DNA from: Armatimonadia bacterium
Lineage (GTDB): Bacteria; Armatimonadota; Zipacnadia; Zipacnadales; UBA11051
DNA length: 19,155 nucleotides
Assembly (NCBI GenBank): GCA_039683575.1
Contig: JBDKRC010000285.1
Location: 1-19,155, forward strand
Reading direction: 5' to 3'
In this document: in pieces, positions 1,122 to 19,155 of the stretch
Position numbering within the stretch: position 1 is the first letter of the stretch
Layout of the letters: every line of letters begins with the position of its first letter
Translations under genes and position numbers: made by a program
The notes under the pieces: model-generated
The model's input: the letters and a program-made list of their open reading frames with translations, nothing else
The model's database searches: none
What the model was told of the DNA's origin: nothing

Positions 1122-2096
1122 CTAGTCTTCGTCAGCGCTACCGCCGGCCAGGCTCAGATCGTACTGCTGCAGCCTCTCCAGCACTTCGTCCAGCGACCGC
1201 CGACCAAAGTTGCGAATGTTGAGCAACTCGTTCTCATTGCGCTGGATCAGCTCGCCCAGCGTATTGATGTTTTCCTTCTTCAGGCAGTTGAAGGTGCGCA
1301 CTGAGAACTCGACATCCTCAATCGGGGTGTCCAGGATCTTGTTGCGCACTTCATCTTCGGCCGGCACGGCTTCGGCCGGCGCCGCCACTTCCTCAGCAGC
1401 GCCAAGGAAGATCGTGATGTACTCGCGCAGATGCCGTGCGGCCTGTCGCAGCGCGTCTTCGGGGCTCACAGTGCCGTTGCCCCAGACCTCGAGCACCAGG
1501 CGGTCGAGGTTAGTCCGGCTACCCAGGCGGGTCGGCTCCACGTGGTAGTTCGCGCGAGCTATGGGCGAGAACACTGCGTCAACCGGGATTACGTCCAGAG
1601 CTGTCTGCGAGCGGTCACGCTCTTCAGTCGGCACGTAACCCACGCCCAGCTTGACCCACATGTCGATGTTGATCTCAGTCTCGTCGTCGGAGATCTCCAG
1701 GATGTGCGCTTCGGGGTTGATGATCTCGACATTCGGCGGCGTCTGGATGTCGGCGGCGAGAACCTCGCCTGCACCCTTCTTCCGTAGATGAACGATGATC
1801 TCTTCTTCCTGCCCCTCTTCCGTCTCGCTCGGCGTCACCTTGATCGCCAACTCGCGGATGTTGAGGATAATCTCGGTGGTATCCTCGATGATCCCGGGAA
1901 GCGTGGTGAACTCGTGCAGCGCGCCGTTGATCCGAACGTCGGTGACAGCGGCGCCCTCAATGTGGGCTATCAGGATACGCCGAAAGGCATTGCCCAACGT
2001 GTCCCCGTAGCCCCGCTCCAACGGCTCGACGGCGAAGCGGCCATACGTGTCCGTCAGTTCCAGCGGCTGCACCTTGGGGTTCAAGCCTTGTAACAT
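1122..2096 (-). CDS. rpoA: RNA polymerase alpha subunit
   Basis: EPLERGYGDTLGNAFRRIL, HEF, alpha-CTD FSVRTFNCLK...NFGRRSL; AGGAG SD. Confidence 0.98.
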   Translation of the reverse strand: MLQGLNPKVQPLELTDTYGRFAVEPLERGYGDTLGNAFRRILIAHIEGAAVTDVRINGALHEFTTLPGIIEDTTEIILNIRELAIKVTPSETEEGQEEEIIVHLRKKGAGEVLAADIQTPPNVEIINPEAHILEISDDETEINIDMWVKLGVGYVPTEERDRSQTALDVIPVDAVFSPIARANYHVEPTRLGSRTNLDRLVLEVWGNGTVSPEDALRQAARHLREYITIFLGAAEEVAAPAEAVPAEDEVRNKILDTPIEDVEFSVRTFNCLKKENINTLGELIQRNENELLNIRNFGRRSLDEVLERLQQYDLSLAGGSADED

Positions 2097-2178
2097 GATG
2101 ATCTCCTAAACAACTGCTATCACGCCAGTGCGGTGCGCGCGCCGGCAGCGCGCGCGGGTGGTACTGCCCACGGGTCTC

Positions 2179-2811
2179 TTACCGCGAGTAGAACTCCACA
2201 ACCTGCTGCTCGTCCACCTGCGTATCGATCTGCTCGCGGGACGGGATGGCGTTGATCGTAACGGTCCGGTTCTGGTAATCCACCGTCATCCATTCGGGGA
2301 TGGGGCGGCCAGCCGCGGCCTTGAGTTCCTTGAACGGCCCGGCGTCCTTGCTGTTGTCCTTGACCTTGATGACATCGCCCGCGCGCACCAGCGCCGATGG
2401 CACGTTCATCCGCTTGTCATTGAGCTGGAAGTGCCCGTGGCTGACCAGCTGGCGGCTCTCGGAACGGCTCGAGGCCAGACCGGACCGGTAGATGACGTTA
2501 TCGAGGCGACGCTCCAGAAGCTGCAGCAGCACTTCGCCAGTAACGCCCCCGGCACGCTCCGCCTGGCCAACATAGCCGCGGAACTGCTTCTCGAGCACAC
2601 CGTAGATGTACCGCATCTTCTGCTTCTCACGAAGCTGCTTGCCGTAGTCGCTCACGCGCCGGCGCTGCATCCGCTGTTCGCCACCCTGTCCGGGAGGATA
2701 TGCTTTCCTGGTCTGCGGGCAATGCTGACCATAGCAACGCTGCCCCTTGAGGAACATCTGCTGTCCCTCGCGCCGGCACAGCCGGCAAATAGCTTCCCTA
2801 TATCGTGCCAT
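2179..2811 (-). CDS. rpsD: 30S ribosomal protein uS4 (Cys-containing form)
   Basis: MARY...CRLCRREG...SDYGKQLREKQK...LERRLDNVIYR...VVEFYSR. Confidence 0.98.
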   Translation of the reverse strand: MARYREAICRLCRREGQQMFLKGQRCYGQHCPQTRKAYPPGQGGEQRMQRRRVSDYGKQLREKQKMRYIYGVLEKQFRGYVGQAERAGGVTGEVLLQLLERRLDNVIYRSGLASSRSESRQLVSHGHFQLNDKRMNVPSALVRAGDVIKVKDNSKDAGPFKELKAAAGRPIPEWMTVDYQNRTVTINAIPSREQIDTQVDEQQVVEFYSR

Positions 2812-2849
2812 TCAGGCCTTCACCTCCAGAAATCCCAGCCTCGCTCGCC

Positions 2850-3242
2850 CTAGACGCGACGCCGCTTCGGCGCGCGGCATCCGTTATGCGGCACGGGTGT
2901 AACGTCCTTGATGTTGACAACCTCAAGACCCGCTGCCTGCAGGGCTCGGATCGCCGTCTCGCGCCCGGAGCCAGGCCCCCGCACGAATACGTCTACCCGG
3001 GACATGCCGTAGTCCTGCGCCCGACGTGCCACGTTCTCGGCTGCCTGCTGGGCCGCAAACGGCGTGCCCTTCTTCGTGCCGGAGAACCCGATAGTGCCGG
3101 CGCTCGCCCACACTAGAACATTGCCTTCTTGATCAGCAATGCTGATGATGGTGTTGTTGAACGAGGACTTGATGTTCACGCGACCGTACGGGACCTGCCG
3201 CTTTACTTTCTTTGGTCCACGGGCGCCTTTTTGCTGTCGCAT
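2850..3242 (-). CDS. rpsK: 30S ribosomal protein uS11
   Basis: [42 protein letters not shown]. Confidence 0.98.
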
Positions 3243-3376
3243 ATTACTTCTGCCTCCGCAGGGTCTACGCTACCCCAGATGGGAAGATACTCGAATGAAC
3301 AGGAGTCTCCGGCACCGCCGACGCGCCTGTGCGCGTATTGGGTATCGGGGCCGAAGACCCCTACTTGGTCGCTCCA

Positions 3377-3760
3377 TTACGTCTTGCGCAGGGCCTTCTT
3401 CTTCCCGGCCACGGTCTTGCGCCGACCCTTGCGCGTCCGCGCGTTGGTCCGTGTGCGCTGCCCGTTTACCGGCAGGCCGCGGCGGTGCCGCATCCCTCGG
3501 TAGGTGCCGATCTCCACCAAACGCTGGATGTTCGAGGCCACTTCGCGCCGCTTATCACCCTCGATGGTGTAGTCGCGCTCGATGATCTCACGCAGCTTGG
3601 CGGCCTCGTCCTCGGTCACGTCGCGCATGCGCGTAGCCGGGTCGATACCAGCCATCTCCACGATCTTCTTCGCTGTGGTATGGCCGATGCCGTAGATATA
3701 GGTTAGAGCGATTCCAACTCGCTTGTCCCGCGGGACGTCAACGCCGACGATTCTTGGCAC
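3377..3760 (-). CDS. rpsM: 30S ribosomal protein uS13
   Basis: (M)[25 protein letters not shown]...[29 protein letters not shown] start at 3760 with AGGAGG SD. Confidence 0.98.
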
Positions 3761-3793
3761 TGCACTGCCTCCTGGCAATCAACTAAGTCTAGA

Positions 3794-3907
3794 TTATCCC
3801 TGGCGCTGTTTGTGGCGCGGGTTCTCGCAGATCACCCGCACGATGCCATGCCGCCGAATGATCTTGCATTTGTCGCAACGCGGTTTGACTGATGCCGTTA
3901 CTTTCAT
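3794..3907 (-). CDS. rpmJ: 50S ribosomal protein bL36 (Zn-ribbon form)
   Basis: Not in the ORF track; manual translation [37 protein letters not shown] (37 aa), GGGAG SD. Confidence 0.97.
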
Positions 3908-3979
3908 CGAACTCCCTGCTTCCGTTCAACTCGCTGAGAGCGCAGGCATCCGCTGCCCGCATCTCCACTGAAACCCGCT

Positions 3980-4237
3980 CTATTTATGCAACCACGTAAT
4001 CCGACCTCGGGTCAGATCATATGGCGACAACTCTACAGTGACTTTGTCCCCCGCCATGACCTTGATGAACCGCATCCGGATCTTGCCGGACACGTGCGCC
4101 AGCACCTCATGCTTGTTGGGAAGCTCCACACGAAATACGGCATTCGGGAGCTTCTCAACTACGGTGCCCAGCACGCGAATCGCCTTTTGCCCCTTGTCCG
4201 TCTCTTCTTCCTGGCGGTGCTGCTTGTGTTTCCTCAT
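3980..4237 (-). CDS. infA: Translation initiation factor IF-1
   Basis: [10 protein letters not shown]...[39 protein letters not shown] overlap with the map stop codon. Confidence 0.97.
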
Positions 4238-5037
4238 GCCCCGTTAGCCTTTGTCAAACTGGTTAGTACGAGCGGCTTGTCCTTCGTGACGGCCACTGTG
4301 TGCTCAAAATGTGCGCTCAGACGCCCGTCTGCCGTCCGCATCGTCCACCCGTCGCGGTCAAGCTTCAGCTCTGGACCGCCAGCGTTGACCATCGGCTCGA
4401 TGGCCAGCACCATTCCTGGCCGCAGCTTCAGATCGTAGTCCGCAAACTGACGCGGGCTGTAGAAATTCGGCACCTGCGGCGGCTCGTGCATCTGCCGGCC
4501 TATACCATGGCCGACCAGATCCGTCACGCAACTGAAGCCCTGTGCCTCAACGTACTCCTGGATCGCCTTGCTGATATCGCCCAGGAATTTGCCTGCCACA
4601 GCCTGCTCGATTCCCACCCAGAGGGCGTGTTCAGTCGCTACCAGCAGACGCTCCGCCTCTTCACCAATCTCGCCGACTGCTACCGTGGTGGCGCTGTCCC
4701 CGTGGAAGCCCTCATAGAAAGCTCCTACGTCCAGCCCCACGACGTCCCCCTCCTGCACTACCTCAGTGGTCCGAGGAATGCCGTGAACGACTATATCGTT
4801 GATCTCGACACACAGGGTGCCAGGATAGCCGCGATAGCCTTTGAAGCTGGGCACGGCGCCTGCCGAGCGAATCACTTCCTCGGCGATCTTGTCAAGCTCC
4901 AGACTGCTGATACCGGGACGCACGGCCTTTGCCGCTACATCCAGGGCCTCTGCCGTGATCTTCCCGGCGAGGGCCATAATCTCAATCTCTTCTTCACTCT
5001 TGCGCAGGACCTTGAGGTTGCGCGACTTACCAACCAT
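4234..5037 (-). CDS. map: Methionine aminopeptidase type I
   Basis: VVHGIP, DVG...GDS, GHGIG...[15 protein letters not shown] metal-ligand motifs. Confidence 0.97.
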
Positions 5038-5040
5038 CTA

Positions 5041-5718
5041 CTACTTGCACTTCCTAACGCCTCGTGCCTGCAGAGCCTCGTCAACGCGCTGCGCCACTTC
5101 CGGCGGCGTCGCGCTGCCGTCAATTGTTACAAGGTTGCCTGTGTCGGTGTAGTATTGAACCAGCGGCATGGTCTGTCGGTGGTACACCGACAGCCGCTCG
5201 GAAATCGCTTCCACCTGGTCGTCTGCGCGCTGGTAGATCTCGCCACCGCACTGCGGGCACTTGTCACCCACGTCGAGGCCATCGCGATCGATGTGGAAGA
5301 TCGCGCCACAACCCCGACACATGCGCCGCCCGGTCAGACGCCGGAGTAGCACGTCATCAGGAACCACCAAGTTTACCACAACTGGGGGGTTCATGGCCAG
5401 ACTTTCCATGGCTTTTCCCAGGGCCTCGGCCTGTGGAAGGGTCCGCGGGAAGCCGTCGAGCAGCACGCCATTGGTCTGAATGTCCTCGGCCGCCAGACGC
5501 TCTTGCACGATTCCTATCACAAGCTCGTCCGTTACCAGTTCCCCGGCGTCCATGAAAGCCTTCGCCTTCAGGCCCAGTTCTGTCTGGCCGGCCACCGCAG
5601 CCCGCAGCATGTCGCCGGTCGACACGTGCACGACGCAGTAGTCGCTCACGAGCTGCTCGGCCTGCGTGCCCTTCCCCGCTCCGGGTGGTCCCAATAGGAT
5701 GAAGTTGGTCTGTGCCAT
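5041..5718 (-). CDS. adk: Adenylate kinase with Cys4 zinc LID
   Basis: GPPGAGKGTQA P-loop, STGDMLR, LLDGFPRT, LID CRGC...CPQC. Confidence 0.98.
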   Translation of the reverse strand: MAQTNFILLGPPGAGKGTQAEQLVSDYCVVHVSTGDMLRAAVAGQTELGLKAKAFMDAGELVTDELVIGIVQERLAAEDIQTNGVLLDGFPRTLPQAEALGKAMESLAMNPPVVVNLVVPDDVLLRRLTGRRMCRGCGAIFHIDRDGLDVGDKCPQCGGEIYQRADDQVEAISERLSVYHRQTMPLVQYYTDTGNLVTIDGSATPPEVAQRVDEALQARGVRKCK

Positions 5719-5747
5719 GTCTTTCCCGCCTCGGTAGCTCTGCTGCG

Positions 5748-7079
5748 TTACGACAGGAAGCCCTTGTAGTGCCGCATCAGAAGCTGCGCTTCAACCTGCT
5801 GCATCGTATCGAGAGCCACGCCAACAACGATGAGAAGCGAGGTGCCGCCGACCAGCCCGAACGTCCGCACTCCAGTGATATCGCCCACGTAGTACTGCAT
5901 CAGAGCGATGATGCCAAGGAAGATGGCCCCGGCCAGCGTTATGCGGTACAGGATCTTGTCCAGGTAATCACGCGTCCGCTCGCCTGGGCGGATGCCCGGG
6001 ATGGCTCCACCGTTCTTCTGCAGGTTCTCAGCGATCTGTTCGGGGTTGAACGTAACCGCCGTGTAGAAGTAGGTGAACACTACCACCATTGCAAAGTAGA
6101 GCAGCGAGGCGAACCAGTTCTGGCCAGGGGTGGTGAAGTCCACCATCGCAGCGATTGCATTGCGGACCTGGTCAGACGTGACGGGCAGTATCCGTGCGAC
6201 CCCGTCGACAAACCCAGGACTGTTCAGGAAGCTCGCAATGGTTGCCGGGAACATGACCACTGAGATTGCGAAGATGATCGGGATAACGCCAGCCTGGTTG
6301 ACGCGCAGCGGCAGGAACGTTGTCTGGCCGCCCCAGACTTTGTTGCCTTTTACGCGCTTGGCGTACTGGACTGGGATCTTTCGCTGCGCCTGCTGGACCT
6401 TGACGATCCCGTAGATCGTGCCCAGGAAGATCAGCAGCAGGAAGGCAATATTGGCCAACCCGATTTCGCGACCCACATACAGGACTGTCGTCTGGGCTAC
6501 CTGCTGCGGGATCGAGGTCATGATGCCCACAAAGATGATGAGCGAAATGCCCTGACCGATGCCCTTGGTGGTGATCATGTCTCCAAGCCACATCAGGAAC
6601 GAGGTCCCAGCGGTCATCATCAGGATGCCAAAGATCGTCTCCAACCAACCGCCGGAGTACGCCCCGGCGCTACGGAACCACGTGATCATGCCGGCTGCCT
6701 GGATGATTGCCAGACCCACCGTCATGTACTTCGTCCAGGCATTGATCTTCTTCTGGCCGTATTCGCCCTCTTTTTGCAGCTGCTCCAGTTGCGGGATCGC
6801 CATCACCAGGAGCTGCATGATAATCGAGGCGTTAATGTAGGGCATGATGCCCAGAGCCAGAACCGAGAAACGCTTCAGCGATCCCCCGACGAATGTGTTG
6901 AACAATTCGAAAATGTTGCCGCCCTGGAACAGGTTGGCGAGCTTCTCGATGTCCACACCAGGCATCGGCACGTGGGCACACCCGGCATATACGGCAAACA
7001 TCGCCATCACAAAGAAGATGCGCTGCCTGACGTCAGGAAGCCGAAGAGCGGTTGCCAGCGCGGCCAGACGCTGTTTCAT
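5748..7079 (-). CDS. secY: Preprotein translocase subunit SecY
   Basis: ALGIMPYINASII, GIGQGISLIIF, GVIPIIFA, IPGIRPGE, GGTSLLIVVGVA; multiple hydrophobic segments. Confidence 0.98.
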   Translation of the reverse strand: MKQRLAALATALRLPDVRQRIFFVMAMFAVYAGCAHVPMPGVDIEKLANLFQGGNIFELFNTFVGGSLKRFSVLALGIMPYINASIIMQLLVMAIPQLEQLQKEGEYGQKKINAWTKYMTVGLAIIQAAGMITWFRSAGAYSGGWLETIFGILMMTAGTSFLMWLGDMITTKGIGQGISLIIFVGIMTSIPQQVAQTTVLYVGREIGLANIAFLLLIFLGTIYGIVKVQQAQRKIPVQYAKRVKGNKVWGGQTTFLPLRVNQAGVIPIIFAISVVMFPATIASFLNSPGFVDGVARILPVTSDQVRNAIAAMVDFTTPGQNWFASLLYFAMVVVFTYFYTAVTFNPEQIAENLQKNGGAIPGIRPGERTRDYLDKILYRITLAGAIFLGIIALMQYYVGDITGVRTFGLVGGTSLLIVVGVALDTMQQVEAQLLMRHYKGFLS

Positions 7080-7540
7080 CCGGCGATCACCTCAACGCTG
7101 CCACCCGCCGCCTCGATCTTCGCCTTGGCGCTTTCACTAACGGCATGCGCGCGTATCGTCAGAGCCTTGGTCAACTCGCCGGTGGCGAGGATCTTCAGGC
7201 CCTTCTTGCCCATCTTCTTGACCCAACCCAGCTCCTGCACCAGTTCCGGGGTGACCACGGTGCCTGCCTCCAGCCGGTCGAGCTGGCTGAGGTTCAGGAT
7301 CGAGTGCTGTTTGCGGAACATCCCGATGTTGTGTGACTTGTTCGAAGTCCCACGCAGCTTGGGCGTCCTCATGTAAAGCGGGTTCTGACCACCCTCAAAG
7401 CCAGGGCGGACATTAGTGCGGGCGTGCTGGCCCTTGATACCGCGACCGGCATACATGCCCTGTCCGGACCCCAACCCGCGGCCGATCCGCCTGGTCTTTT
7501 TGAGCTTGCCTGAAGCGCGGCTTAGTTGACTGAGTTTCAT
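7076..7540 (-). CDS. rplO: 50S ribosomal protein uL15
   Basis: MKLSQL...RIGRGLGSG...GFEGGQNPL...KIEAAGG. ATG 7540 with GGGAG SD. Confidence 0.97.
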   Translation of the reverse strand: MKLSQLSRASGKLKKTRRIGRGLGSGQGMYAGRGIKGQHARTNVRPGFEGGQNPLYMRTPKLRGTSNKSHNIGMFRKQHSILNLSQLDRLEAGTVVTPELVQELGWVKKMGKKGLKILATGELTKALTIRAHAVSESAKAKIEAAGGSVEVIAG

Positions 7541-7634
7541 AATTGCTCCCGCCATCCGTACTGCTACTACGTTCATTCACCCGGGGGGGACTGTGCGCTC
7601 CCTACGAGAGAAAGAGCTTCACCCACCCGTTTGC

Positions 7635-7820
7635 TTACGCCGACTCCACCGTGACCATATGCTGCACCACGCGAAGCATTCCGTGCACGTCTGCCGTATC
7701 CGGCAACAGCACGCTCTGATGCGGCCGCTTCAGTCCCAGGGCCAACGCGGTCTTGCGCAGCTTGGGCTTTTGGCATATCAAACTTTTGGTCAGCGTGACC
7801 TTGATCTTGTTCTCGCTCAC
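7635..7820 (-). CDS. rpmD: 50S ribosomal protein uL30
   Basis: KIKVTLTKSLI...TALALGLKR...GMLRVVQHMVTVE. GTG start with GAGGAGG SD. Confidence 0.95.
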   Translation of the reverse strand: MSENKIKVTLTKSLICQKPKLRKTALALGLKRPHQSVLLPDTADVHGMLRVVQHMVTVESA

Positions 7821-7877
7821 TGCTACGGCCTCCTCGAACCGGCTCTGCCGGAATGACGGGTTGCCCGTCCGTTGCCT

Positions 7878-8246
7878 CTAGAACTCCAGGCCACCCTCAC
7901 GCGCCGCGTCGGCCAGGGCCTTGACCCGGCCATGGAAGGGGCGCCCGCTGCGGTCGAAGACGACGGCGCTCACGCCCGCGGCCTTGGCCCGCTCAGCAAT
8001 CGCCTTGCCGATGGCCTGCGCCGCGGCAATATCGCTCTTGCTCTTGAGGCTCTCGCTGATGGTCTTGTCCAGCGTGGTCGCCGCGGCCAGCGTGCGTCCC
8101 GTGCTGTCATCAATGACCTGCACGTGGATGTGCCGCAGGCTGCGGAATACCGATAGTCGCGGCCGCTCCGGCGTACCGGATACCTTCCGCCGCACCCGGC
8201 TCTTGCGCCGCAATAGGCTCTGTTGCTTATCTCTGAGTCTGCTCAT
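7878..8246 (-). CDS. rplR: 50S ribosomal protein uL18
   Basis: [25 protein letters not shown]...[18 protein letters not shown]. Confidence 0.98.
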
Positions 8247-8339
8247 CGTTTCCCTGCCGTATCTGCCGCCTCGTTCGACCTGGCACCAAATCTACCAGCT
8301 CAGGCGACTCGCTTTCGCGCACGGTGCGCTGATTTTCGA

Positions 8340-8885
8340 CTAACCGCCGGCCTTCGACTTGCCAGCCTTGCGGCGGACCAATTCGCCCTGATAGCGGATG
8401 CCCTTGCCCTGGTAGGGCTCGACCTTCCGCAGCTTCCGGATCTCAGCAGCCGTCTGCCCCACCATCTGCTTGTCCGGACCTTTGACGATTACGTTCGTCG
8501 TACCCTCGACCTCGAGCGTCACGGTCGGGCGGGGCTCAACCACCACGGGGTGCGAGAAGCCCAGGCGCAGGAGCAGGTTATTCCCCTGCTTCTCAGCGCG
8601 GTAGCCGACGCCGTTGATCTCGAGACGCTTGCTGAAGCCCTCGGTGACCCCCGTCACCATGTTGGCCAGCAGCGCCCGTGTCAAACCATGCAGTGACCGG
8701 TTCTCGCGCTGGTCGTTGGGCCGCGTGATGACAATCTTGCCGTCCTCGACCACGATTGTCAGGTTAGGGCTGAAGCTGCTATTGAGCTCCCCACCGGGGC
8801 CCTTCACCGTCACGGCATTGCCCTCGGCGACGGTCACCGTTACGCCCTTGGGTATGGGAATGGGTTGTTTGCCAATCCTGGACAT
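8340..8885 (-). CDS. rplF: 50S ribosomal protein uL6
   Basis: [39 protein letters not shown]. Confidence 0.98.
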
Positions 8886-8934
8886 GATTCAAATCACCCT
8901 TCAAACGCACCCGAGTCCGGGCGCGGCACACTCG

Positions 8935-9369
8935 CTACCAGATATACCCGATGACCTCGCCGCCGATGCCGCGCTTGCGCGCTTCGCGTGACGTCATGAT
9001 GCCTTCGCTCGTAGATACAATGCAGACGCCAAGGCCGTTGAAAACGCGCGGCAGCTTGTCCTTCTGCACGTATACGCGCCGACCGGGCTTGCTGATCCGC
9101 TTCAGCCCACGCAGAACCGGCTCACGGTTCGCGTCGTACTTCAGCCTGATGCGCAAGCTTTGACCCTTGCCCACGAGTTGGAAGCCACGGATGTAGCCCT
9201 CCTCGTGGAGAATCTTGGCGATCTCGCGCTTGATCTTCGACACCGGCACCTTGACGTTGGCATGCTTCGCCTGTGCCGCGTTGCGGATCCGCGTGAGCAT
9301 GTCAGCAATCGGGTCTGATACCACGCCCGTGCCTTTGACTCCCGCTGTGTCAGTGCTCGCTTGTTTCAT
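8935..9369 (-). CDS. rpsH: 30S ribosomal protein uS8
   Basis: [49 protein letters not shown]. Start is either ATG 9369 (GGAG SD, 15-aa extension) or GTG 9324. Confidence 0.96.
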
Positions 9370-9443
9370 GAGCCTATCTCCACCCGACCTGCTCGTATTG
9401 GAAGAACGCTCCATCGGGAGCCTTCCTGTGGATGTCGCAGCCA

Positions 9444-9629
9444 TTACCAACTCGACTTCCGTACGCCCGGAATGTTGCCCGACAGTGCATTCTCGCGGAA
9501 GCAAATTCGGCACATGCCAAACGGCCTCATGTAGCCGCGCCGCCGTCCGCAGATCATGCAGCGGTTATAGGCCTGCGTCGAAAACTTCGCCGGCCGCTTC
9601 TGCTTTGCTATCCAGGATTTCTTGGCCAA
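9444..9629 (-). CDS. rpsN: 30S ribosomal protein uS14, type Z
   Basis: 61 aa, RCMICGR...MCRICFRE...[11 protein letters not shown] start with AGGAGG SD. Confidence 0.97.
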
Positions 9630-9697
9630 CTTGCGCCTCCTGATTACCCGACCAAATCAACTTAAGTACCAGGCGTTGCACACGCCCCTCGACCAGC

Positions 9698-10240
9698 TTA
9701 CGCCTTGACGAACGGCATTCCCATCAGCTCCAACAGCGCCCGCGCCTCTTCGTCATTCTTCGCCGTCGTCACGATCGTGATGGACATCCCCCGCTGCCGC
9801 TCGATGTCATCGTACCCGAGTTCCGGGAAGATGAGCTGGTCGTCCAGCCCGAACGAGTAGTTCCCACGACCATCAAACGCGTTTCGGGATACTCCGCGGA
9901 AGTCGCGGATACGGGGCAGCGCGATGCTCAGCACCCGGTCCATGAACTCCCACATCCGCTCGCCGCGCAAGGTCACCCGGCAACCAATCGGCATATCCTT
10001 GCGGATGCTAAACGCTGAAACCGACTTCTTGGCCCGCGTGATGACCGCCTTCTGCCCCACGATCGTGGTCAGCTCACGCACCGCGGCGTCAAGCGTATCG
10101 GTGTTCTCACGCGCCTGGCCAACGCCCATGTTCACGGAGATCTTCTCCAGACGCGGGGCTTCCCACACGTTCTTGAACCCGAAGCGCTCCATCAGCGCCG
10201 GCAATATCTCTGATTCGTATCTGTCTTTCAACCTGGGCAT
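9698..10240 (-). CDS. rplE: 50S ribosomal protein uL5
   Basis: [40 protein letters not shown]. Confidence 0.98.
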
Positions 10241-10292
10241 GTTCTTATTGCCTTTCCGCCAATACCTGTCTCAAGAGCCACCGCGGTTGCGG

Positions 10293-10637
10293 CTACTCGT
10301 CGACGTCCTTGTGGCACTTGCTGCACACCCGCACGCCCTTGCCTTCACTCGTCCGCCGCCGCGTCACTCGCGTCGGCGCGTCGCAGTTCGGGCAGACCAG
10401 CATCACGTTCGATACGTGGATCGGACCGGGCTGCGTCACGATCCCCGCCTGGCGCATCTGCTGGCTCTGCCGCACGGCCTTCTTGATCAGGTTGATCCCC
10501 TCTACCACCACACGCTGATCATCAGGGCGTACTTCCAGAACCTTACCGCGGCGTACCCGGCCCTTGAACGAGCGGTCCTTACCCGCGATGATGAGCACTT
10601 CGTCTCCGGCCTTGATATTCTGCTTCCGCTTCGGCAT
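10293..10637 (-). CDS. rplX: 50S ribosomal protein uL24
   Basis: KOW motif GDEVLIIAGKD, VVVEGIN, PIHVSNV. Confidence 0.97.
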   Translation of the reverse strand: MPKRKQNIKAGDEVLIIAGKDRSFKGRVRRGKVLEVRPDDQRVVVEGINLIKKAVRQSQQMRQAGIVTQPGPIHVSNVMLVCPNCDAPTRVTRRRTSEGKGVRVCSKCHKDVDE

Positions 10638-10682
10638 TGTTATCGCTCCAACTATCCTGATCCTGATCCCGGCGCGGCCAAC

Positions 10683-11051
10683 CTATACTACCTCAGGTGC
10701 CAGCGAGACGATCTTCATGTATTCCCGCTCGCGCAGCTCGCGGGCAACGGGCCCGAACACGCGCGTCGCGCGGGGGTTCTTCTGGTCGTCGATGATGACA
10801 GCGGCGTTGTCGTCGAAGATGATCTGCGTGCCGTCGGGACGCCGCGTCTTCTTCCTGGTCCGCACCACAACCGCCTTGATAACCGTGCCCTTGGGAATCG
10901 GGCTCGAAGACGTTACGGACTTGGTCGAGGCGATGATCTGGTCACCGAGGCCGGCATACCGGTGGTAGCCCCGGCCCACGACCCTGATCATGCCGATCTC
11001 CTGCACACCCGAGTTGTCTGCAACCTTCAGTCTTGACTCTGTCTGTATCAT
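10683..11051 (-). CDS. rplN: 50S ribosomal protein uL14
   Basis: [43 protein letters not shown]. Confidence 0.98.
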
Positions 11052-11116
11052 TGCCTGCTACCTCTAGCGATCTGCCTGCTTCTCAACTCTCCGCAGGGCC
11101 ACCGACCCCACCCCGC

Positions 11117-13204
11117 CTAATCCTCCGCCGCCTCGCGAGCCTTCCGTTCCGCCACAATCCCCTCCGCCAGATGCGACGGCACTTCCTGGTAATGCGAGAA
11201 CTCCATCGTGTAGCTCGCCGCGCCCTGAGACAGTGACCGCAGGTCGGCTGCATACCGCGCCATCTCCGCCAGCGGCACCGAAGCCTTCACTACCACCATG
11301 CCCCCGCCAATTGGCTCGGTCCCTTGGATCTGGCCGCGCCGCCCGGACATGTCACTCATGATATCGCCCATGACGGTCTCGGACACGGTGATCGATGCCA
11401 CCATGATCGGCTCGAGCAATATCGGGTTCGCCTGCTGCAAAGCATTCCTGACCGCGATGCCACCGGCCATACGGAAGGCCTGCTCAGAGCTATCCACCGG
11501 GTGGGAGCTGCCATCGTCCAGGATGACCCGGACGCCAACCACCGGTGCCCCGGCCAGGATGCCCTTCTTGAGCCCGTCCTGCACGCCCTTCTCAACCGCC
11601 GGGATGAAGTTCGTGGGCACCGAGCCACCCTTGACTTCATTTACAAACTCATTCTCATCAACACCAGGCGGCTGCGGCTCCATGCGTACCCACACATCAC
11701 CAAACTGTCCACGACCGCCGGTCTGCTTCTTGTGCCGCCCCTGCACTCGCGTGGACTTGGAGATCGTCTCGCGGTACGGGATCAGCGGGTCGCTCAGATT
11801 GACTTTGACATCAAACCGGTTCGCCAGCCGCTCGGCCAGGATATCAAGATGTAGCGCGCCCATGCCCGATACGATCAGTTCGTTCGTCTCCGCGCTGCGC
11901 TCGTAGTGCAGACCCGCGTCCTCTTCGGCCACACGCGCCAGCGACATCCCGAGCTTGTCTTCGTCCGCGCGGCTCGCAGCGGTCATGGCTGCCGAGTGCA
12001 TCGGCAACGGCTGCGGCGGCTGCGGGTAGACAATCTGTGCCTTCGGATCGCAGAGCGTATCACCGGTGTGTGCGTTCTCCAGCTTCGACACCGCGCCAAG
12101 GTCTCCAGCGACGAGCTCGCTCACGTTCTGCGACTGCTTGCCCTGCATGGTCGCCAGGCCGGAGAGCTTTTCCTTGCTGTTCCGCCGGCTGTTGACCACT
12201 GCCATGTCGCTCATGGCCTTCCCCGACGCTATGCGTAGCAGGTTGATTCGCCCCACGTAGGGGTCGCTCATGGTCTTGAAAATGAACGCTGAGAACGTTT
12301 CGCTAGCGCTGCAGGACCGCGTCTCTTCATCCTCGCTACCGGGCTTTGTGCCCGTCCAGGCCGCACGTGCGTTGGGTGCCGGGCAACTGCTCTTCATGAA
12401 CTCCAGCACACCGCCCAGGCCCTTGGCCACGTATGCATCGGAGCACAGTACCGGCACCATCAGCCCCTGCGCCACCGCCTTCTGCAGGCCCTGCGCCAAC
12501 TCCGCAGCGCTCAACTCGCCAGCTTCCAGATACTTCTCGGTCAATTCATCATCGGTCGCGGCGACCGCGTCTACCAGCGCCTCACGGGCCGCGGACACCT
12601 CGTCCGCCATGTCACCGGGGACCTCCCCGGCCTTGATGTCCTTGCCCTCGCCCGTATAGGCCTTCATTGCTACCAGATCTACCACGCCGGCGAAACTGCC
12701 ACCGCTGCCGATCGGCAACTGTACCGCGACCGCTTCGCAGTCTTTGAGCATTGTGTTCATGCTCTCGACTGCACTGGCGAAATCGGCGTGCTCTTTGGTC
12801 ATCTTGGCGACGAGGCCGACCACCGGAACGCCCATTTCACGTGCTGTGTTGTATACCTTGATCGTGTGGATCTCCACACCCGACTGCGCGTCCACTACCA
12901 TCAGCGCTGCGTCCCCCACCTTCAGCGCGTAAGGCACGTCTGCGAAGAATTCCGCGTATCCGGGGGTATCAACGATATTGATCTTCACGCCGGCGTATTC
13001 GCAGTGGCACAGGGCCGGGGTGATCGTGATCTTACGGCTTACTTCTTCTGGCTCAAAGTCTGCCGTCGAGGTTCCGGCATCAACGCGCCCCAGCCGGTCA
13101 ATTGCTCCGGTGGCGAACAGCAACCCCTCAACCAGGGTAGTCTTGCCCGACCCACGGTGACCGATCAGTACCAGGTTTCGTATTTGCTCCGTAGAAAAGG
13201 CCAC
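11117..13204 (-). CDS. Elongation factor G paralogue (EF-G II / FusA2-type), about 695 aa
   Basis: Five-domain EF-G layout: GHRGSGKTT, EEVSRKITI, DTPGY, GMGALHL, PYRETI, KKQTGGRGQFG, GSSHPVDSS, LLEPIM, RRG, LRSLSQG. The G1 GH..GKT and DTPGY forms match the EF-G II class rather than canonical FusA (AHIDAGKT, DTPGH). GTG start at 13204 with GGAGG SD. Confidence 0.93.
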   Translation of the reverse strand: MAFSTEQIRNLVLIGHRGSGKTTLVEGLLFATGAIDRLGRVDAGTSTADFEPEEVSRKITITPALCHCEYAGVKINIVDTPGYAEFFADVPYALKVGDAALMVVDAQSGVEIHTIKVYNTAREMGVPVVGLVAKMTKEHADFASAVESMNTMLKDCEAVAVQLPIGSGGSFAGVVDLVAMKAYTGEGKDIKAGEVPGDMADEVSAAREALVDAVAATDDELTEKYLEAGELSAAELAQGLQKAVAQGLMVPVLCSDAYVAKGLGGVLEFMKSSCPAPNARAAWTGTKPGSEDEETRSCSASETFSAFIFKTMSDPYVGRINLLRIASGKAMSDMAVVNSRRNSKEKLSGLATMQGKQSQNVSELVAGDLGAVSKLENAHTGDTLCDPKAQIVYPQPPQPLPMHSAAMTAASRADEDKLGMSLARVAEEDAGLHYERSAETNELIVSGMGALHLDILAERLANRFDVKVNLSDPLIPYRETISKSTRVQGRHKKQTGGRGQFGDVWVRMEPQPPGVDENEFVNEVKGGSVPTNFIPAVEKGVQDGLKKGILAGAPVVGVRVILDDGSSHPVDSSEQAFRMAGGIAVRNALQQANPILLEPIMVASITVSETVMGDIMSDMSGRRGQIQGTEPIGGGMVVVKASVPLAEMARYAADLRSLSQGAASYTMEFSHYQEVPSHLAEGIVAERKAREAAED

Positions 13205-13269
13205 TCGGAATCCTCCAAGCCAAATACATGTCACGTAGTCTCAATTGCTGCTGGCTCGCGCCCAGATCC

Positions 13270-13530
13270 CTACCGCGCCCGCTCCACGATCTGCACTACA
13301 CGCCACGACTTGTCCTTACTCAGGGGCCGACACTCCGTGATGATCACGCGATCGCCCTGACGCGCCTCGTTCCCCTCGTCGTGCGCCTTGTACTTGCTGG
13401 TCCGGCGCAATACCCGGCCGTACAGCGGGTGAGGCGTCAGGCGCTGGACTGCGACCACAACGGTCTTGTCCATCTTGTCGCTGACTACCGTTCCCTCGAG
13501 GGTCCGCTTCTGAATCTGCTGGTCACTCAT
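13270..13530 (-). CDS. rpsQ: 30S ribosomal protein uS17
   Basis: [37 protein letters not shown]. Confidence 0.98.
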
Positions 13531-13531
13531 C

Positions 13532-13750
13532 TTAGATCAACCCTCGCTCAGCCTGGATCGTCCGGATCCGTGCGATTGCCTTGCGGTACTTGCGGACGCG
13601 CTTCGGATCCTCAACCTGCCCCGAAGCCAGTCGGAACCGCAGGTTAAACAGCCCCTCCTGGATGTGGCGCAGCCGCTCTTCGAGCTCTTCCGGCGACGCG
13701 TTGCGAACCTGCTCGACAAAATCGCGGGTGCTTTTGGCATTGTCAGGCAT
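13532..13750 (-). CDS. rpmC: 50S ribosomal protein uL29
   Basis: [12 protein letters not shown]...RKAIARIRT; position between rplP and rpsQ. Confidence 0.95.
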
Positions 13751-14165
13751 TCAGATCATCCTCCCGCGTGATAAATCGGCACTTGATGGGCAGTTTGTGC
13801 ATAGCCAGGCGGATGGCTTCCTTGGCCACTTCGTGCGGTACTCCACCCATTTCGAACATGATCCGGCCGGGCTTTACCACTGCGACGAAGTATTCCGGGG
13901 CTCCCTTGCCCTTACCCTGGCGGGTTTCCGCCGGCTTGCGGGTGACGGGCAGGTCCGGGAAGATCCGGATCCAGACTTTGCCGCCGCGCTGGGCGTAACG
14001 GGTCATGGCGACACGGGCTGACTCGATCTGGCGGCTCGTGATCCATGCTGGCTCCAAAGCCTGCAGGCCATACTCCCCAAAATCAAGGTTGCTGCCGCGA
14101 TAAGCCATGCCGCGCATGTTGCCACGGTGCGACTTGCGATGCTTTTGGCGCTTGGGCATCAACAT
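13743..14165 (-). CDS. rplP: 50S ribosomal protein uL16
   Basis: [37 protein letters not shown]. Confidence 0.98.
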
Positions 14166-14171
14166 CTCTAA

Positions 14172-15038
14172 CTACTCCTCTGTCTCGGCGGCGGGTGACT
14201 CGGTGTCCTCGTCACCCAGCGCGGCGATCAGCATGTCTTCTTCAGGTGCGGCCATCTCGACGCTTTCAATCTTCGCCGGGGCGGCATCCAACTGCGGGGC
14301 GACCGGGGCAACTGCCTGCGGTTCGACGGCCACCGCAGCCTCGGCTGCCGGAGCGACCTCAACTGCTTCCGCAACCGCGGGACCCTGAGGCTGCGATTCC
14401 TTCTTCGGGGGAAGGATGTCGCCGCGGTAGACCCATACCTTGACGCCGATGTGACCGTAGCCCGTCCGGGCCTCGGCGCGACCATATTCCACGTCAGCGC
14501 GCAGAGTGTGCAGTGGCACGCGCCCCTCGGGGCCAACGGACTCCGAACGTGCGATCTCGGCGCCGCCGAGGCGCCCGCTCACTGCGCAGCGGATACCGCC
14601 CGCTCCGAGCCGCATCGCCCGCTCTACCGCCTGCCGCATCGCGCGCCGGTAAGACACGCGACGCTCGATCTGCCGCGCGATGTTGTCGGCCACAAGCTGG
14701 GCATTGATATCCGGTTCCTTGGTCTCCTCGACGTTGACCCGAACCTTCTGCCCGATCATCTTCTCGAGCCGCTGGCGCAGCACGTCAACGTCACGCCCGC
14801 CCTTACCGATGATGATCCCGGGCTTCGCCGTCGAGATCGTTACCGTGACGGTGTCCGCCGCACGCTCGATGAAAATGTCCGAAATCGAAGCGTTCCGCTG
14901 GTTCTCGGCCACGAAGTTGCGCACGCGGATGTCCTCGATGAGTTGGTCGCGGTATCGCGGCCCCTCAGCGAACCACCGGCTGCGTGCCTCGCGGATCACG
15001 CCCAGTCTAAAACCGTATGGATGTACCTTCTGTCCCAT
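14172..15038 (-). CDS. rpsC: 30S ribosomal protein uS3 with long acidic C-terminal tail
   Basis: [54 protein letters not shown] 15038 with GGAG SD. Confidence 0.98.
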
Positions 15039-15118
15039 TAGTGGGTCACTCCGTACCTTCGTCTTTACGCGAACTTGCTTCTCCAACCCCGCTGGGAAGG
15101 CCCAGTGAAGCCCGTCCC

Positions 15119-15463
15119 CTACTCCTCGGCCCCGTCCGTCATCACAACTGTAATATGGCAGGTCCGCTTCACGTACCGGTCTGCCCGGCCGCGTGCCCTG
15201 GGCATAAGCCGCGCCATCTTCAGCGCGCCGTCAACCATGACCGTCTTAACTGCCAAGTCCTTGACATCCATCTCGTGGTTGTTCTCGGCGTTGGCAACGG
15301 CCGATTCCATGCATAGGCTCAAGGCCTTAGCTGCCGGACTGGATGACACCGCCAGGATCCCGCGCGCCTCGCCCAAAGCCTTCCCGCGCACCAGATCCGC
15401 ATAACGCTTGATCTTGCGGGGACCGAACCGAACATATTTGGCAACTGCTCTTGCTTCCATCAT
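15119..15463 (-). CDS. rplV: 50S ribosomal protein uL22
   Basis: [10 protein letters not shown]...SAVANAENN...PRARGRA...HITVV; AAGGAG SD. Confidence 0.97.
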
Positions 15464-15569
15464 CCCTGCTCCTTGCAAACGCGCCTATCCCTGGTGGGGC
15501 GACCCGAACGGGCCGATTGGACGGCCTGCAACGTGACCGTGTGCGGTCCGCTGCCTGCCCTCTCGCACT

Positions 15570-15857
15570 CTACCTCTTGCCCGTCGTGCGCTCCGACTTG
15601 CCCCCGCGCATTCCGCGGAACGTCCGCGTCGGCGCAAACTCGCCAAGCTTGTGACCGACCATGTTCTCGGTGATCAGAATGGGCACATGCTTGCGCCCGT
15701 CGTGAACCGCCAGCGTGTGGCCGAGCATCTCGGGGAAGATGGTCGAGCGTCGCGACCAAGTGCGGATCATCCGCTTCTCCCCGCTGTCGTTCATGGCCTG
15801 GACCTTGGCCAGCAGCTTTACGTCTGCGAAAGGTCCTTTTTTGATTGATCGGGACAT
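15570..15857 (-). CDS. rpsS: 30S ribosomal protein uS19
   Basis: [40 protein letters not shown]. Confidence 0.98.
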
Positions 15858-15910
15858 CCGATAACCTCCGGAATACCTGCCTGGAAGGGCCGCGTCGGCC
15901 CCCCACTAAA

Positions 15911-16741
15911 CTACTTTGCGGTCCGCTTGCGAACGATGTACTTGCTCGATGCCTTCCGCACGCTCCGCGTCTTCTTGCCCAGCGTCTTCTTGCCCCATGG
16001 CGACCGCGGGCTGTCCAGACCGATCGGTGCCTTGCCCTCGCCACCACCATGCGGATGGTCCTTCGGGTTCATGACAACTCCGCGCACCGTCGGCCGCACA
16101 CCGAGCCACCGCGTCCGCCCAGCCTTCGCGTTCCGCACATTGCCATGATCTACGTTACCGACCCGTCCCATCGTCGCCCGGCACTTCTGCGATACCATGC
16201 GCATCTCACCCGAGGGGAGCCGCACTGTCGCGTAGTTGCCTTCCTTGGCTACAAGCTGCGCCTCGGCGCCGGCACTGCGAACCATCTGGCCGCCGCGTCC
16301 GGGGGTCAACTCGATGTTGTGGATGGTGCTACCAAGAGGGATGCGCTCCAGCGACAGGCAGTTACCCATCCGGGCCGGTGCGCCCTCGCCGGACTGCACC
16401 ATGTCGCCCTTGGCCAACCCCAGCGGCGCCAGGATATAGCGCTTCTCGCCATCGAGATAGTGCAGCAGGGCGATGTTCGCCGAACGGCCGGGATCGTACT
16501 CGATCGCCGCAACCTTGGCCGGCACGCCGTCCTTGTTGCGCTTGAAGTCAATGTCGCGCACAAGCTTGCGGTGTCCGCCGCCCTGGTGCCGGACAGTGAT
16601 CTTGCCGGTGTTGTTGCGACCCGCGGCCCGCCTCTTGCGGAAGCGTAGCGCCTTCTCGGGCTTCTTGTTGTCTACCTCGCGCACCACGGTCGTCAACGAC
16701 CGTTGCCCCGCAGAAGTCGGTTTGTATTCCTTAAGAGCCAT
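15911..16741 (-). CDS. rplB: 50S ribosomal protein uL2
   Basis: [44 protein letters not shown]. Confidence 0.98.
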
Positions 16742-16859
16742 GTTCACCTACTCCTTGCTGATAGCGGCGTCCTGTCTGCTACTGCGCGTCCGGGTTACTT
16801 CCCCGGCAATCCGTTCTGCGGTAGCTTGGCTCGTACAGTCGCCACGCCAGCCGGTAGAC

Positions 16860-17180
16860 CTAGAGTCCACCCTCGAGAATGTCGATACTTGATCCCGGAG
16901 CCAACGTCACGATGGCTTTCTTCCACCGCGCCGTCTTGCCTACCCGGTACTTGTAGCTTCGCCGTCGCGCCTTGCCCTGCACGTTCATGGTGTGAACAGC
17001 GAGCACTCGGACGTTGAAGATGGCCTCGACGGCCTGACCGATCTGGATTTTGTTCGCGCGGGGATCAACCTTGAACGAGTACTTGTTCGCCTCGGCGGAC
17101 TCCCGCATGCTCTTTTCCGTCACCAGGGGGCGCAGAATTATCGCCCGGTGGTCGATTGGACCGGCAATGCCCTTAAGCAT
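16860..17180 (-). CDS. rplW: 50S ribosomal protein uL23
   Basis: [28 protein letters not shown]. Confidence 0.97.
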
Positions 17181-17823
17181 CAGCGGAGCCTCCTCCCGTC
17201 AGGGCCGCCAAGCCGGCCTGGGTAAAGATAATATAGTCGGCCCATAGCGCGTCACGGGTGTTCAGATGCGGCGACTCCCGCAGCACCACGCCCGGCAGGT
17301 TACGCGCACTCTTATAGTTGTTGTCGTCTATGGCCTCGTCGCGCGAACCCATGATCAGGACCCGGCCCTGAACATGCATCCCGTCAAGCAGCGCGACCAT
17401 GTCCTTAGTCTTGGGCTGCTCGAGAGCGAGACCCTCGATCACCAGAACCTTGCCACGCCTGGCCAAGGTCGACAGTGCGCTGTAAAGAGCCGCCTGTCGG
17501 GCCTTCTTGGGCATCACTAGGACCCTGCGGTCGCCCTGAGGCGGGAACGCCGCGCCACCACCGACGAAGACCGGTGCGGAACGTGCGCCGTGCCGCGCGC
17601 GCCCGAGCCCCTTCTGGCGGTACATCTTCGCTGTGGTCATCGAGACTTCGCCACGGGACTTGGCCCGGCCGGCCTTGCGGTTCCGGTGCGCGTCAACGAC
17701 CATGACCGCCTGGTGCACCAAGTCGCGGTTCAGCGCCGCGCCGAACACGGTCGCGGCTACCTCGAGCTGACCCACCTTGTGACCTGAGTTATCATAAAGC
17801 GCTAGCTGCGGCATAGAACTCAT
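17173..17823 (-). CDS. rplD: 50S ribosomal protein uL4
   Basis: [26 protein letters not shown]. Alternative start at 17814. Confidence 0.96.
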
Positions 17824-18458
17824 CCCTTCGCAACATCCTGGGGCCGGTAGATGGCCAGCAGGCCGCCGTTGGCCCCCGGCACCGCACCCTTGATCAGCAG
17901 CAGGTTCCGCTCCGTGTCCACGTCGACAACGGTCAGACCCTTGGTCGTTACCGTCTCGGCGCCCATGTGGCCAGGACTGCGCTTGCCGGGAAATACCCGA
18001 GCGGCGTCCGTCGCCCCAGCCGACATCGGCTTGCGGTGGATCTTCGAAGCACCATGCTCCATCGGGCCACCTACAAAGTGATGCCGCTTCATGCCGCCAG
18101 CGAATCCCTTACCCTTTGAGGTGCCCTGGATGGTTACCGTATCGCCCTTGGCGAAGACATCAACCTTGATCTCAGACCCAGCCTCCAGCTCGTTCACGCC
18201 CTGCAGGCGGAACTCCCGCAGGTACCGCTTAGGCGTGATACCCTTCGACTGGAAGTGCCCCATCAACGGCTGGTTGGTGCGATTGCGCTTGCGCTCTTCA
18301 AACCCCACCTGGACAGCGGCGTAGCCGTCCTTCTCCGCGCTCTTGCACTGCACTACAACACAGGGCCCGGCCTCGACGACGGTGACGGGCACTACCCGGC
18401 CCTGGTCGTCGAATATGCGCGTCATTCCGATTTTCTTGCCCAAAATTGCTGCTGGCAT
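17820..18458 (-). CDS. rplC: 50S ribosomal protein uL3
   Basis: ILGKKIGMT, DGYAAVQVG, GTSKGKGFAG, GHMG, KGAVPG. ATG 18458 (GGTGA SD) or 18470. Confidence 0.97.
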   Translation of the reverse strand: MPAAILGKKIGMTRIFDDQGRVVPVTVVEAGPCVVVQCKSAEKDGYAAVQVGFEERKRNRTNQPLMGHFQSKGITPKRYLREFRLQGVNELEAGSEIKVDVFAKGDTVTIQGTSKGKGFAGGMKRHHFVGGPMEHGASKIHRKPMSAGATDAARVFPGKRSPGHMGAETVTTKGLTVVDVDTERNLLLIKGAVPGANGGLLAIYRPQDVAKG

Positions 18459-18566
18459 CTCTGTCACCATTCATCGGCTGTGGGAGCACGAGCTATTATA
18501 CTCGCCTCTTCGACCTCACTCGCGTAGCTGGGCTCTGTGCGAACCAACTACTCGGCACGGTCTGAA

Positions 18567-18893
18567 CTAGCCGCTCGAAGTCTTGATCGATACATCAACC
18601 CCACTCGGCAGGTCCAGCTTCATCAGTGCATCGACTGTCCGCTGCGTCGAGTCGAGAATGTCAATCAGCCGCTTGTGCACGCGAATCTCGAAGTGCTCCA
18701 TGGAACGGCTGCTGCGGCCCAGGGCCGTCGGCTTGACGACGCAGTGCACGCTCTTGTCCGTAGGCAGCGGGACCGGACCGGCGATGCGAGCGCCACTGCG
18801 CTCAGCCGTCTCCACGATCTTCTGCGCGGACCGATCGAGGATCTCGTGGTCAAAAGACTTGAGCTTGATCCTGATCTGATTGGTTCTTGCCAT
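18567..18893 (-). CDS. rpsJ: 30S ribosomal protein uS10 (NusE)
   Basis: [36 protein letters not shown] 18893 with GAGGAG/AAGGA SD. Confidence 0.97.
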
Positions 18894-18948
18894 CGAAATC
18901 CTTCTCCTCGCGGCCACTGTCGCTTGAGACGCGCCCTGAGGCGCATGG

Positions 18949-18974
18949 GGTGGGGCCTCTCTCGAGGCCCCACC
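18949..18974 (-). promoter_or_regulatory. Perfect 11-bp GC-rich hairpin with GAGA tetraloop between tuf and rpsJ, no U-tract
   Basis: Minus strand reads GGTGGGGCCTC-GAGA-GAGGCCCCACC. Confidence 0.55.
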
Positions 18975-18985
18975 GCCTCGTTAAC

Positions 18986-19155
18986 TTAGTCAATAACCTT
19001 CGTAACAACCCCGGCGCCTACCGTGTGGCCACCCTCGCGGATGGCGAACCGGACGCCCTCTTCCATCGCAACCGGCACGATCAGCTCCGCCGTCAGCGTC
19101 ACGTTGTCACCAGGCATGATCATCTCAGTGCCCTCGGGCAGGTTCGCAACGCCAG
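18986..19155 (-). CDS. tuf: Elongation factor Tu, C-terminal fragment (truncated by window edge)
   Basis: Manual translation ...[14 protein letters not shown]...[27 protein letters not shown]. Confidence 0.97.

Follow-up and report, generated by a model that had tools for sequence, protein, structure and literature searches.

A 19,155 nt stretch of DNA from an Armatimonadia bacterium (assembly GCA_039683575.1, contig JBDKRC010000285.1, positions 1 to 19,155; hereafter the window, meaning the whole stretch that was analysed) was found to carry, between the ribosomal-protein genes rpsQ and rplN, an intact gene for a paralogue of elongation factor G (EF-G). Signature residues, domain-wise conservation and tree topology fit the EFG II subfamily, in which we file this gene as a member forming its own phylum-level subgroup, and a survey of related genomes demonstrated that its position within the S10-spc cluster is an old, lineage-wide trait and no insertion event. 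The reading that we favour, with moderate confidence, is that of an EFG II factor impaired in GTP hydrolysis, co-transcribed with the ribosomal-protein genes and made together with their products. What is new about the gene is its genomic setting, the protein being of a kind already known; the functional reading is plausible and rests on residues and gene order.

The initial annotation had described an intact, co-oriented EF-G-like gene with its own GGAGG Shine-Dalgarno (SD) sequence and 65 nt spacers on both sides, all of which was borne out (Table 1). The open reading frame (ORF) extends over 11117-13234 on the minus strand, which carries every gene in the window, and its likeliest start is the GTG at 13204-13202, giving a product of 695 amino acids (aa). 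Alignments with orthologues begin at residues 1-5 of this protein and all five EF-G domains are present (Pfam GTP_EFTU, EF-G_D2, EFG_III, EFG_IV and EFG_C). Family searches also identified the two neighbours, S17 upstream (NF004123, 119.7 bits) and L14 downstream (TIGR01067, 156.8 bits).

EFG II has been described as a very diverse subfamily defined by five differentially conserved positions (Gly and Leu in the P-loop; Thr, Gly and Lys in domain II), with a G2 motif relaxed to Ser/Thr, fast-evolving domains I-III and a conserved domain IV; the RxxS/TI form of G2 is reported there for the Clostridia and Chloroflexi subgroups (Margus et al. 2011, PMC3150367). The window protein was compared within an alignment of sequences from the fetched loci (129 paralogues and 26 str-operon EF-Gs), in which type A denotes the S17-EFG-L14 slot and type B the L5-EFG-S14 slot. 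All five type-I EFG II positions are present in the window protein as Gly15, Leu24, Thr311, Gly355 and Lys374, where the canonical sequences (n = 26) have Ala, Thr, Ile/Val, Ala and Gly. Gly15 and Leu24 lie nine residues apart, as do Gly16 and Leu25 of 1wdt, the positions having been mapped to 1wdt by spacing, without direct alignment. Among type-A sequences the P-loop Gly was found in 61/67 and the Leu in 60/67, compared with Ala in 26/26 and Thr in 19/26 canonical sequences; at the domain II positions (Thr291, Gly333 and Lys352 in 1wdt numbering) the canonical residues were Ile/Val/Leu, Ala (25/26) and Gly (26/26). The G2 motif of the window protein is RKITI, with Ser at the fourth position in 62 of the 67 type-A sequences, while the canonical motif is RGITI with Thr in 26/26.

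The distribution of sequence variation over the domains follows the same subfamily pattern. Across 11 matched genomes, identity for the paralogue and the canonical factor, respectively, was 0.49 and 0.77 in the G-core, 0.39 and 0.53 in domain II, 0.46 and 0.63 in domain III, 0.60 and 0.55 in domain IV and 0.58 and 0.55 in domain V. Phylogenetic analysis kept 26/26 str-operon EF-Gs apart from the 129 paralogues without exception (FastTree support 1.0; IQ-TREE SH-aLRT 100), in trees that were built without named EFG I or EFG II reference sequences, named EFG II members being compared through PDB scores only. The EF-G phylogeny that the initial annotation had proposed as a check on its EF-G II assignment, together with the five signatures and the domain pattern, thus upholds that assignment. 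The protein is not a canonical EF-G: it scores 642.8 bits on the canonical equivalog model TIGR00484, under the cut-off of 659.4, lies between rpsQ and rplN and has Tyr83 in place of the catalytic His.

Other translation GTPases and models were considered and rejected. A tetracycline ribosomal protection protein is contradicted by the NF012153 score (275.7 against a cut-off of 775) and by domain IV loops of EF-G type. spdEFG1 is described as having a three-residue switch I insertion (KDG) and as belonging to a group confined to spirochaetes, planctomycetes and delta-proteobacteria (PMC3150367); residues 3-105 of the window protein align gap-free to canonical EF-G and hence lack this insertion, and spdEFG1/spdEFG2 were rejected. 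NF009381 was discarded as a diagnostic model, as it also matches canonical EF-G (777 bits) and 11/14 control genomes.

Conservation of the arrangement was high throughout the class. Orthologues with 52-80% identity were present in 41/41 genomes searched at the order level, including the window's own, and in 77/79 genomes at the class level, the two without a match being 59% and 83% complete. The neighbourhood survey for rpsQ-fusA2-rplN proposed in the initial annotation recovered S17-EFG-L14 in 53/53 class genomes examined (30/30, 11/11 and 12/12) of the 77 with a match. In other classes of the phylum (52 genomes, many family codes) the gene occupied the same slot in 15, lay between L5 and S14-S8 in 27 and was away from the operon in 10, and the slot was constant within each family code sampled more than once. 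A phylum sample of 201 genomes gave 197 matched at E <= 1e-100, of which 150 had two matches and 47 had one, with 4 having none (table count); five single-match genomes (1-5 contigs) were inspected and in each the sole copy was of the canonical type.

Outside the phylum, 0/26 loci from Clostridia, Bacillota, Negativicutes, Chloroflexota and Acidobacteriota had S17, L14, L5 or S14 within 1.5 kb, and all 26 scored higher with the paralogue query than with the canonical query. This agrees with the earlier statement that EF-G II genes are generally found outside ribosomal-protein operons. The initial annotation had also cautioned that the arrangement would lose novelty if it were already described as standard for the lineage. 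It is indeed standard, class-wide and with a variant slot elsewhere; the gene order was, however, absent from the literature found on EF-G paralogues, Armatimonadetes and ribosomal-protein operons, supplementary files not being covered. In the passages considered here, a conserved genome context is reported only for EFG I (Margus et al., PMC3150367) and the Fimbriimonas genome paper merely counts translation factors (PMC4072686).

The trees also bear on the history of the locus. Type-B and out-of-operon sequences formed one clade in the FastTree phylogeny, and because the out-of-operon ones are nested at several places in this L5-EFG-S14 clade, it is suggested that the gene left the operon repeatedly. 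Ten other-class genomes hold EF-G II away from S17, L14, L5 and S14. Type-A sequences grouped with Chloroflexi and Acidobacteria sequences in free trees (FastTree and a quick IQ-TREE). Two independent EFG II captures were considered as an explanation and not adopted: one clade for all sequences of the phylum was compatible with the data in the AU test (p 0.705), and the constrained tree was 10.5 log-likelihood units better. A single early capture with a later move between slots explains the data just as well as two captures do.

Analysis of the GTPase centre showed that the motifs for nucleotide binding and hydrolysis have been rebuilt. The catalytic His of DTPGH is replaced by Tyr83 in the window protein, and Tyr or Phe occupies this position in 126/129 paralogues, with His in 0/129 paralogues and in 26/26 canonical sequences. 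The P-loop reads GHRGSGKT against the canonical AHIDAGKT, the hydrophobic-gate Ile having become Arg, and the NKMD motif has become AKMT. Loss of the NKxD Asp was seen in 12 of the 13 loci of the window's family (Thr, Ser or Ala instead), while one locus from the window's genus and 44/58 other type-A sequences retained the residue. The two loops through which domain IV contacts the tRNA and decoding centre are conserved, and the loop I 13-mer is identical in 41/58 type-A orthologues. Mycobacterial EF-G2 is described as carrying Tyr at the catalytic His position, and the H88Y change in EF-G1 as nearly abolishing ribosome-dependent GTPase activity (preprint 10.64898/2026.05.25.727771); Bacteroides EF-G2 is cited as a slow translocase without GTPase activity (10.64898/2026.05.25.727771; PMC12172202). 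Judged from these residues, hydrolysis is probably impaired in the paralogue as well.

The surroundings of the gene are consistent with transcription as part of the cluster. A consensus promoter and terminator scan over 10500-13800 returned no promoter above chance (one promoter-like site, on the wrong strand, with 0.7 expected) and no terminator above chance (one weak hairpin over the SD and start codon, with 1.6 expected). The hairpin in question has 7 pairs at 13203-13220, folding of the spacer does not favour it, and the spacers fold no better than shuffles (z -0.35 and -0.92). No Rfam family matched anywhere in the window, and with folds of this kind a regulatory RNA was rejected as a candidate. 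In 59 type-A loci the median spacer was 54 nt upstream (range 1-147 nt) and 39 nt downstream, and at some type-B loci the gene overlaps that for S14 by 1-8 nt. Two metatranscriptome runs of one sample contained contigs with at least 99% identity over parts of the gene, and one RNA-library contig spans 13265 to 12646, taking in the start codon together with 61 nt of the 65 nt spacer before it. Contig ends do not equal transcript ends, and neither uncovered parts of the gene nor comparisons of RNA and DNA depth were used as evidence. Because the spacers are short, a terminator is lacking and an RNA contig runs through the start codon, co-transcription with the ribosomal-protein cluster is likely.

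In the mechanism that we propose, the EFG II paralogue would have been fixed in the S10-spc cluster since early in the history of the phylum, and would be transcribed as part of that cluster and synthesised in step with the ribosomal proteins, with canonical fusA remaining in the str operon. It may act as a ribosome A-site factor that binds as EF-G does and promotes or stabilises translocation with little or no ribosome-triggered GTP hydrolysis, since domains IV and V are kept as in the canonical factor and the GTPase centre is rebuilt. Its role would be that of a slow, cheap second translocase or of a regulator of ribosome state, present constitutively with the ribosomes. Position and conservation suggest that it may be a growth-coupled housekeeping factor.

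A number of observations weigh against this interpretation or against parts of it. Ranked by raw score, solved canonical EF-Gs (544 bits for S. aureus and 521 for T. thermophilus) come nearer to the protein than do solved EFG II members (443 for T. thermophilus EF-G-2, 1wdt; 407 for mycobacterial 9k0z; 406 for Bacteroides 7uvp), and it misses both NCBIfam EF-G2 models (576.1 against a cut-off of 890 for NF009377; 548.3 against 1000 for the Bacteroidetes model NF058620). It is because the signatures fit while raw scores and NCBI models do not, in a subfamily of such diversity, that the gene is filed as an EFG II subgroup of its own. The link to the operon is dispensable, because the gene stands outside it in 10/52 other-class genomes, and the paralogue is not indispensable everywhere in the phylum, because about 32 of the 201 phylum genomes show only a match in the canonical range and seem to lack it. 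No RNA contig extends into S17 or L14 by as much as 31 nt, and RNA libraries can contain DNA, carry-over of which was uncontrolled. Codon adaptation was uninformative (0.684 for the paralogue, 0.660 for canonical fusA and 0.690 for ribosomal proteins, with a background median of 0.677). Finally, loss of the His need not mean that hydrolysis is absent.

Among the alternatives, an assembly artefact or recent mobile insertion can be given practically no weight. The genome is a metagenome assembly of 352 contigs, which would leave room for such an artefact, but the same order recurs in 53/53 other assemblies of the class and both junctions are bridged by DNA contigs: the L14/EF-G junction by contigs of two public runs of one study (10909-11955; 10494-11578) and the EF-G/S17 junction by one contig (12977-13317). 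One of these runs (X1), which bridges both junctions, may be the window's own source sample, and misassembly is contradicted more strongly by the shared order in the 53 assemblies. The two spacers contain no direct repeat flanking the gene, GC content is even over the region (0.61-0.63) and the divergence of orthologues (45-80%) tracks kinship. The misassembly that the initial annotation had named as a threat to its reading is thereby answered, and its description of a locus without terminator, transposase or target-site duplication agrees with the lack of flanking repeats and of any terminator above chance. A gene that is embedded in the cluster and separately controlled, through an internal promoter or attenuator in the spacers or in rpsQ, would be a conditionally expressed accessory EF-G. 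EF-G2 of Bacteroides is reportedly induced by carbon starvation. The strong SD of the gene, the weak hairpin 13220-13203 over SD and start codon, the RNA contig that ends 4 nt short of the rpsQ stop codon and the variable upstream spacer of orthologues could all be read in this way. Such control is nevertheless rather improbable, given that the coding strand has no sigma-70-like site, that terminators and spacer folds do not exceed chance or shuffles, that several orthologues have spacers of 1-20 nt, too short to house a promoter themselves, and that contig ends do not mark transcript ends.

With regard to function, the paralogue could alternatively be a ribosome-binding regulator and not a translocase, one that would, in the manner of mycobacterial EF-G2, bind the non-rotated 70S ribosome without GTP hydrolysis and modulate or park ribosomes, its place in the ribosomal-protein cluster notwithstanding. 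The His-to-Tyr change and rebuilt switch regions are shared with MsmEF-G2, which is described as stress-specific, unable to recycle ribosomes and not needed for growth (10.64898/2026.05.25.727771), and the loss of the NKxD Asp in the window's family suggests that the nucleotide cycle matters little. We consider this unlikely, as both domain IV loops are those of a translocating EF-G, with the loop I 13-mer shared as described above, conservation of domain IV equals or exceeds that in the canonical factor and the score to the mycobacterial EF-G2 entry is 407 bits against 544 to canonical EF-G. A dedicated ribosome-recycling EF-G, with labour split as in the spirochaete and mitochondrial pairs, is very improbable. 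Division of labour between EF-G paralogues is documented (10.64898/2026.05.25.727771) and synthesis alongside ribosomal proteins would make sense for such a factor, but mitochondrial EF-G2 is described as keeping its G motifs and catalytic His and as needing its GTPase, and the EFG II member tested, that of mycobacteria, as unable to recycle ribosomes (both 10.64898/2026.05.25.727771); here the His is lost and a spdEFG1-type switch I insertion is missing (residues 3-105 gap-free). The favoured reading of a co-transcribed, hydrolysis-impaired factor can also be extended to a phylum-wide constitutive EFG II serving as a permanent, hydrolysis-free second elongation gear in slow growers and not as a stress accessory, an extension that we hold to be quite doubtful. 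Because the NKxD Asp is lost in 12/13 loci of the window's family, members of that family might perhaps have relaxed nucleotide specificity, using ATP or any NTP, or have no nucleotide cycle.

The check for a canonical fusA upstream of tuf proposed in the initial annotation was positive. The window's genome (96% complete) holds one further EF-G, 39% identical to the window copy, on contig C190 in the order rpsL-rpsG-fusA-tuf (5' end); this protein scores 981 bits on TIGR00484 (cut-off 659) and has both the str-operon position and the catalytic His of a canonical EF-G. Because C190 breaks off within the 5' portion of tuf and the window opens with the tuf 3' end (18986-19153), the two contigs probably adjoin. 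Both contigs of the present genome end inside tuf, and in many relatives the start of the EF-G II gene lies about 5.7-6.3 kb from a contig end. The pattern points to tuf being a repeat at which short-read assemblies of this lineage tend to break. EFG II as the sole EF-G of a genome was rejected, as five candidate genomes with a single strong match all had pieces of canonical fusA beside rpsL-rpsG. In one relative the canonical fusA (contig C57, 56655-58614) matches in three pieces on one contig, and in another the EF-G II gene (contig C209, 5983-8109) matches in two pieces; a frameshift or an assembly error is possible in each case.

Table 1. Coordinates of the EF-G II gene, its flanks and its functional motifs in the window.
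Feature	Position	Strand	Basis
EF-G II-type paralogue, 695 aa, intact, GTG start	11117..13204	-	ORF, Pfam domains, orthologues in 77/79 class genomes
GGAGG Shine-Dalgarno sequence, 7 nt ahead of GTG	13212..13216	-	sequence reading
Spacer from rpsQ stop to EF-G II start, 65 nt; no promoter or terminator above chance	13205..13269	-	consensus scan, folding
Spacer from EF-G II stop to rplN start, 65 nt; GC hairpin without U-tract	11052..11116	-	scan, folding; bridged by DNA contigs
rpsQ (S17), last gene of the S10 block	13270..13530	-	family search
rplN (L14), first gene of the spc block	10683..11051	-	family search
P-loop, codons 15-22, GHRGSGKT; Ala to Gly, Ile to Arg and Asp to Gly against canonical EF-G	13139..13162	-	alignment
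Tyr83 codon, at the catalytic His position of DTPGH	12956..12958	-	alignment
G4 motif, codons 133-136, AKMT against NKMD; guanine-specifying Asp lost	12797..12808	-	alignment
Domain IV loop I, residues 492-504, conserved as in translocating EF-G	11693..11731	-	alignment
His568 codon, domain IV loop II (HxVDSS), conserved	11501..11503	-	alignment
tuf 3' end at contig edge; links window to str-operon contig C190	18986..19153	-	family search

Gene mapping of the whole window gave the order tuf (3' end), S10, L3, L4, L23, L2, S19, L22, S3, L16, L29, S17 and the EF-G-like gene, followed by L14, L24, L5, S14, S8, L6, L18, L30, L15, SecY, Adk, Map and IF1 and then by S13, S11, S4, RpoA, L17 and TruA. 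The family search confirmed only S10, S3, L29, S17, L14, L24, S14, S8, L18, L30, L15, L17, TruA and the tuf end, the remaining genes being named by ORF size and position. The S5 gene, rpsE, is missing from its usual place (7576-7878), as L18 (7878-8246), L30 (7635-7820) and L15 (7076-7576) stand in sequence; the genome has a single S5 gene (228 aa), on contig C171 (25539-26003), where its neighbour is a pilin-like gene (N_methyl/DUF1559). Another genome of the class likewise has S5 and the cluster on separate contigs, and four other-class genomes carry it 1.8-3.8 kb further downstream than the EF-G II gene. The S3 ORF (14172-15086) encodes 304 aa, its Pfam domains stop at residue 219 and an apparent C-terminal extension of about 85 residues follows; the ORFs of S5 (228 aa) and L15 (166 aa) likewise exceed the length of their Pfam domains.

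These results indicate that the S10-spc cluster is less rigid than the textbook order, as in this class EF-G II came in and rpsE moved out. The few EFG II members studied have been treated as stress or starvation factors, and phylum-wide retention in the most conserved ribosomal-protein cluster, in two slots, argues for a function tied to ribosome production. As a synteny marker, the gene order is also simple to use in telling sub-lineages of the phylum apart, and with the cultured and uncultured members of the phylum, stoichiometry with ribosomes, hydrolysis-independent translocation and the energy economy of oligotrophs become approachable.

In comparison with known systems, the window gene shares with the EFG II subfamily (PMC3150367; type T. 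thermophilus EF-G-2, PDB 1wdt/2dy1) the five signatures, the relaxed G2, the domain IV pattern and, as that study describes it, co-existence with a str-operon EFG I. It differs in scoring 443 bits to 1wdt and in standing inside the S10-spc cluster, unlike the 26 loci of other phyla. Tyr for the catalytic His and altered G2 and G4 motifs are shared with M. smegmatis EF-G2 as described (PDB 9k0z/9k10), whereas the location among ribosomal-protein genes and the canonical domain IV loops set the window gene apart (407 bits to 9k0z). EF-G2 of B. thetaiotaomicron, an EF-G paralogue cited as a slow translocase lacking GTPase activity, was adopted as the functional model, although the window protein falls below the NCBI Bacteroidetes model (548 against 1000 bits) and has a ribosomal-protein operon context. 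Translation and housekeeping genes within ribosomal-protein units are familiar from fusA and tuf in the str operon and from infA, secY, adk and map in the spc-alpha cluster; a second EF-G with an altered hydrolysis centre, placed between S17 and L14 or between L5 and S14, represents a non-classical addition to the classical cluster.

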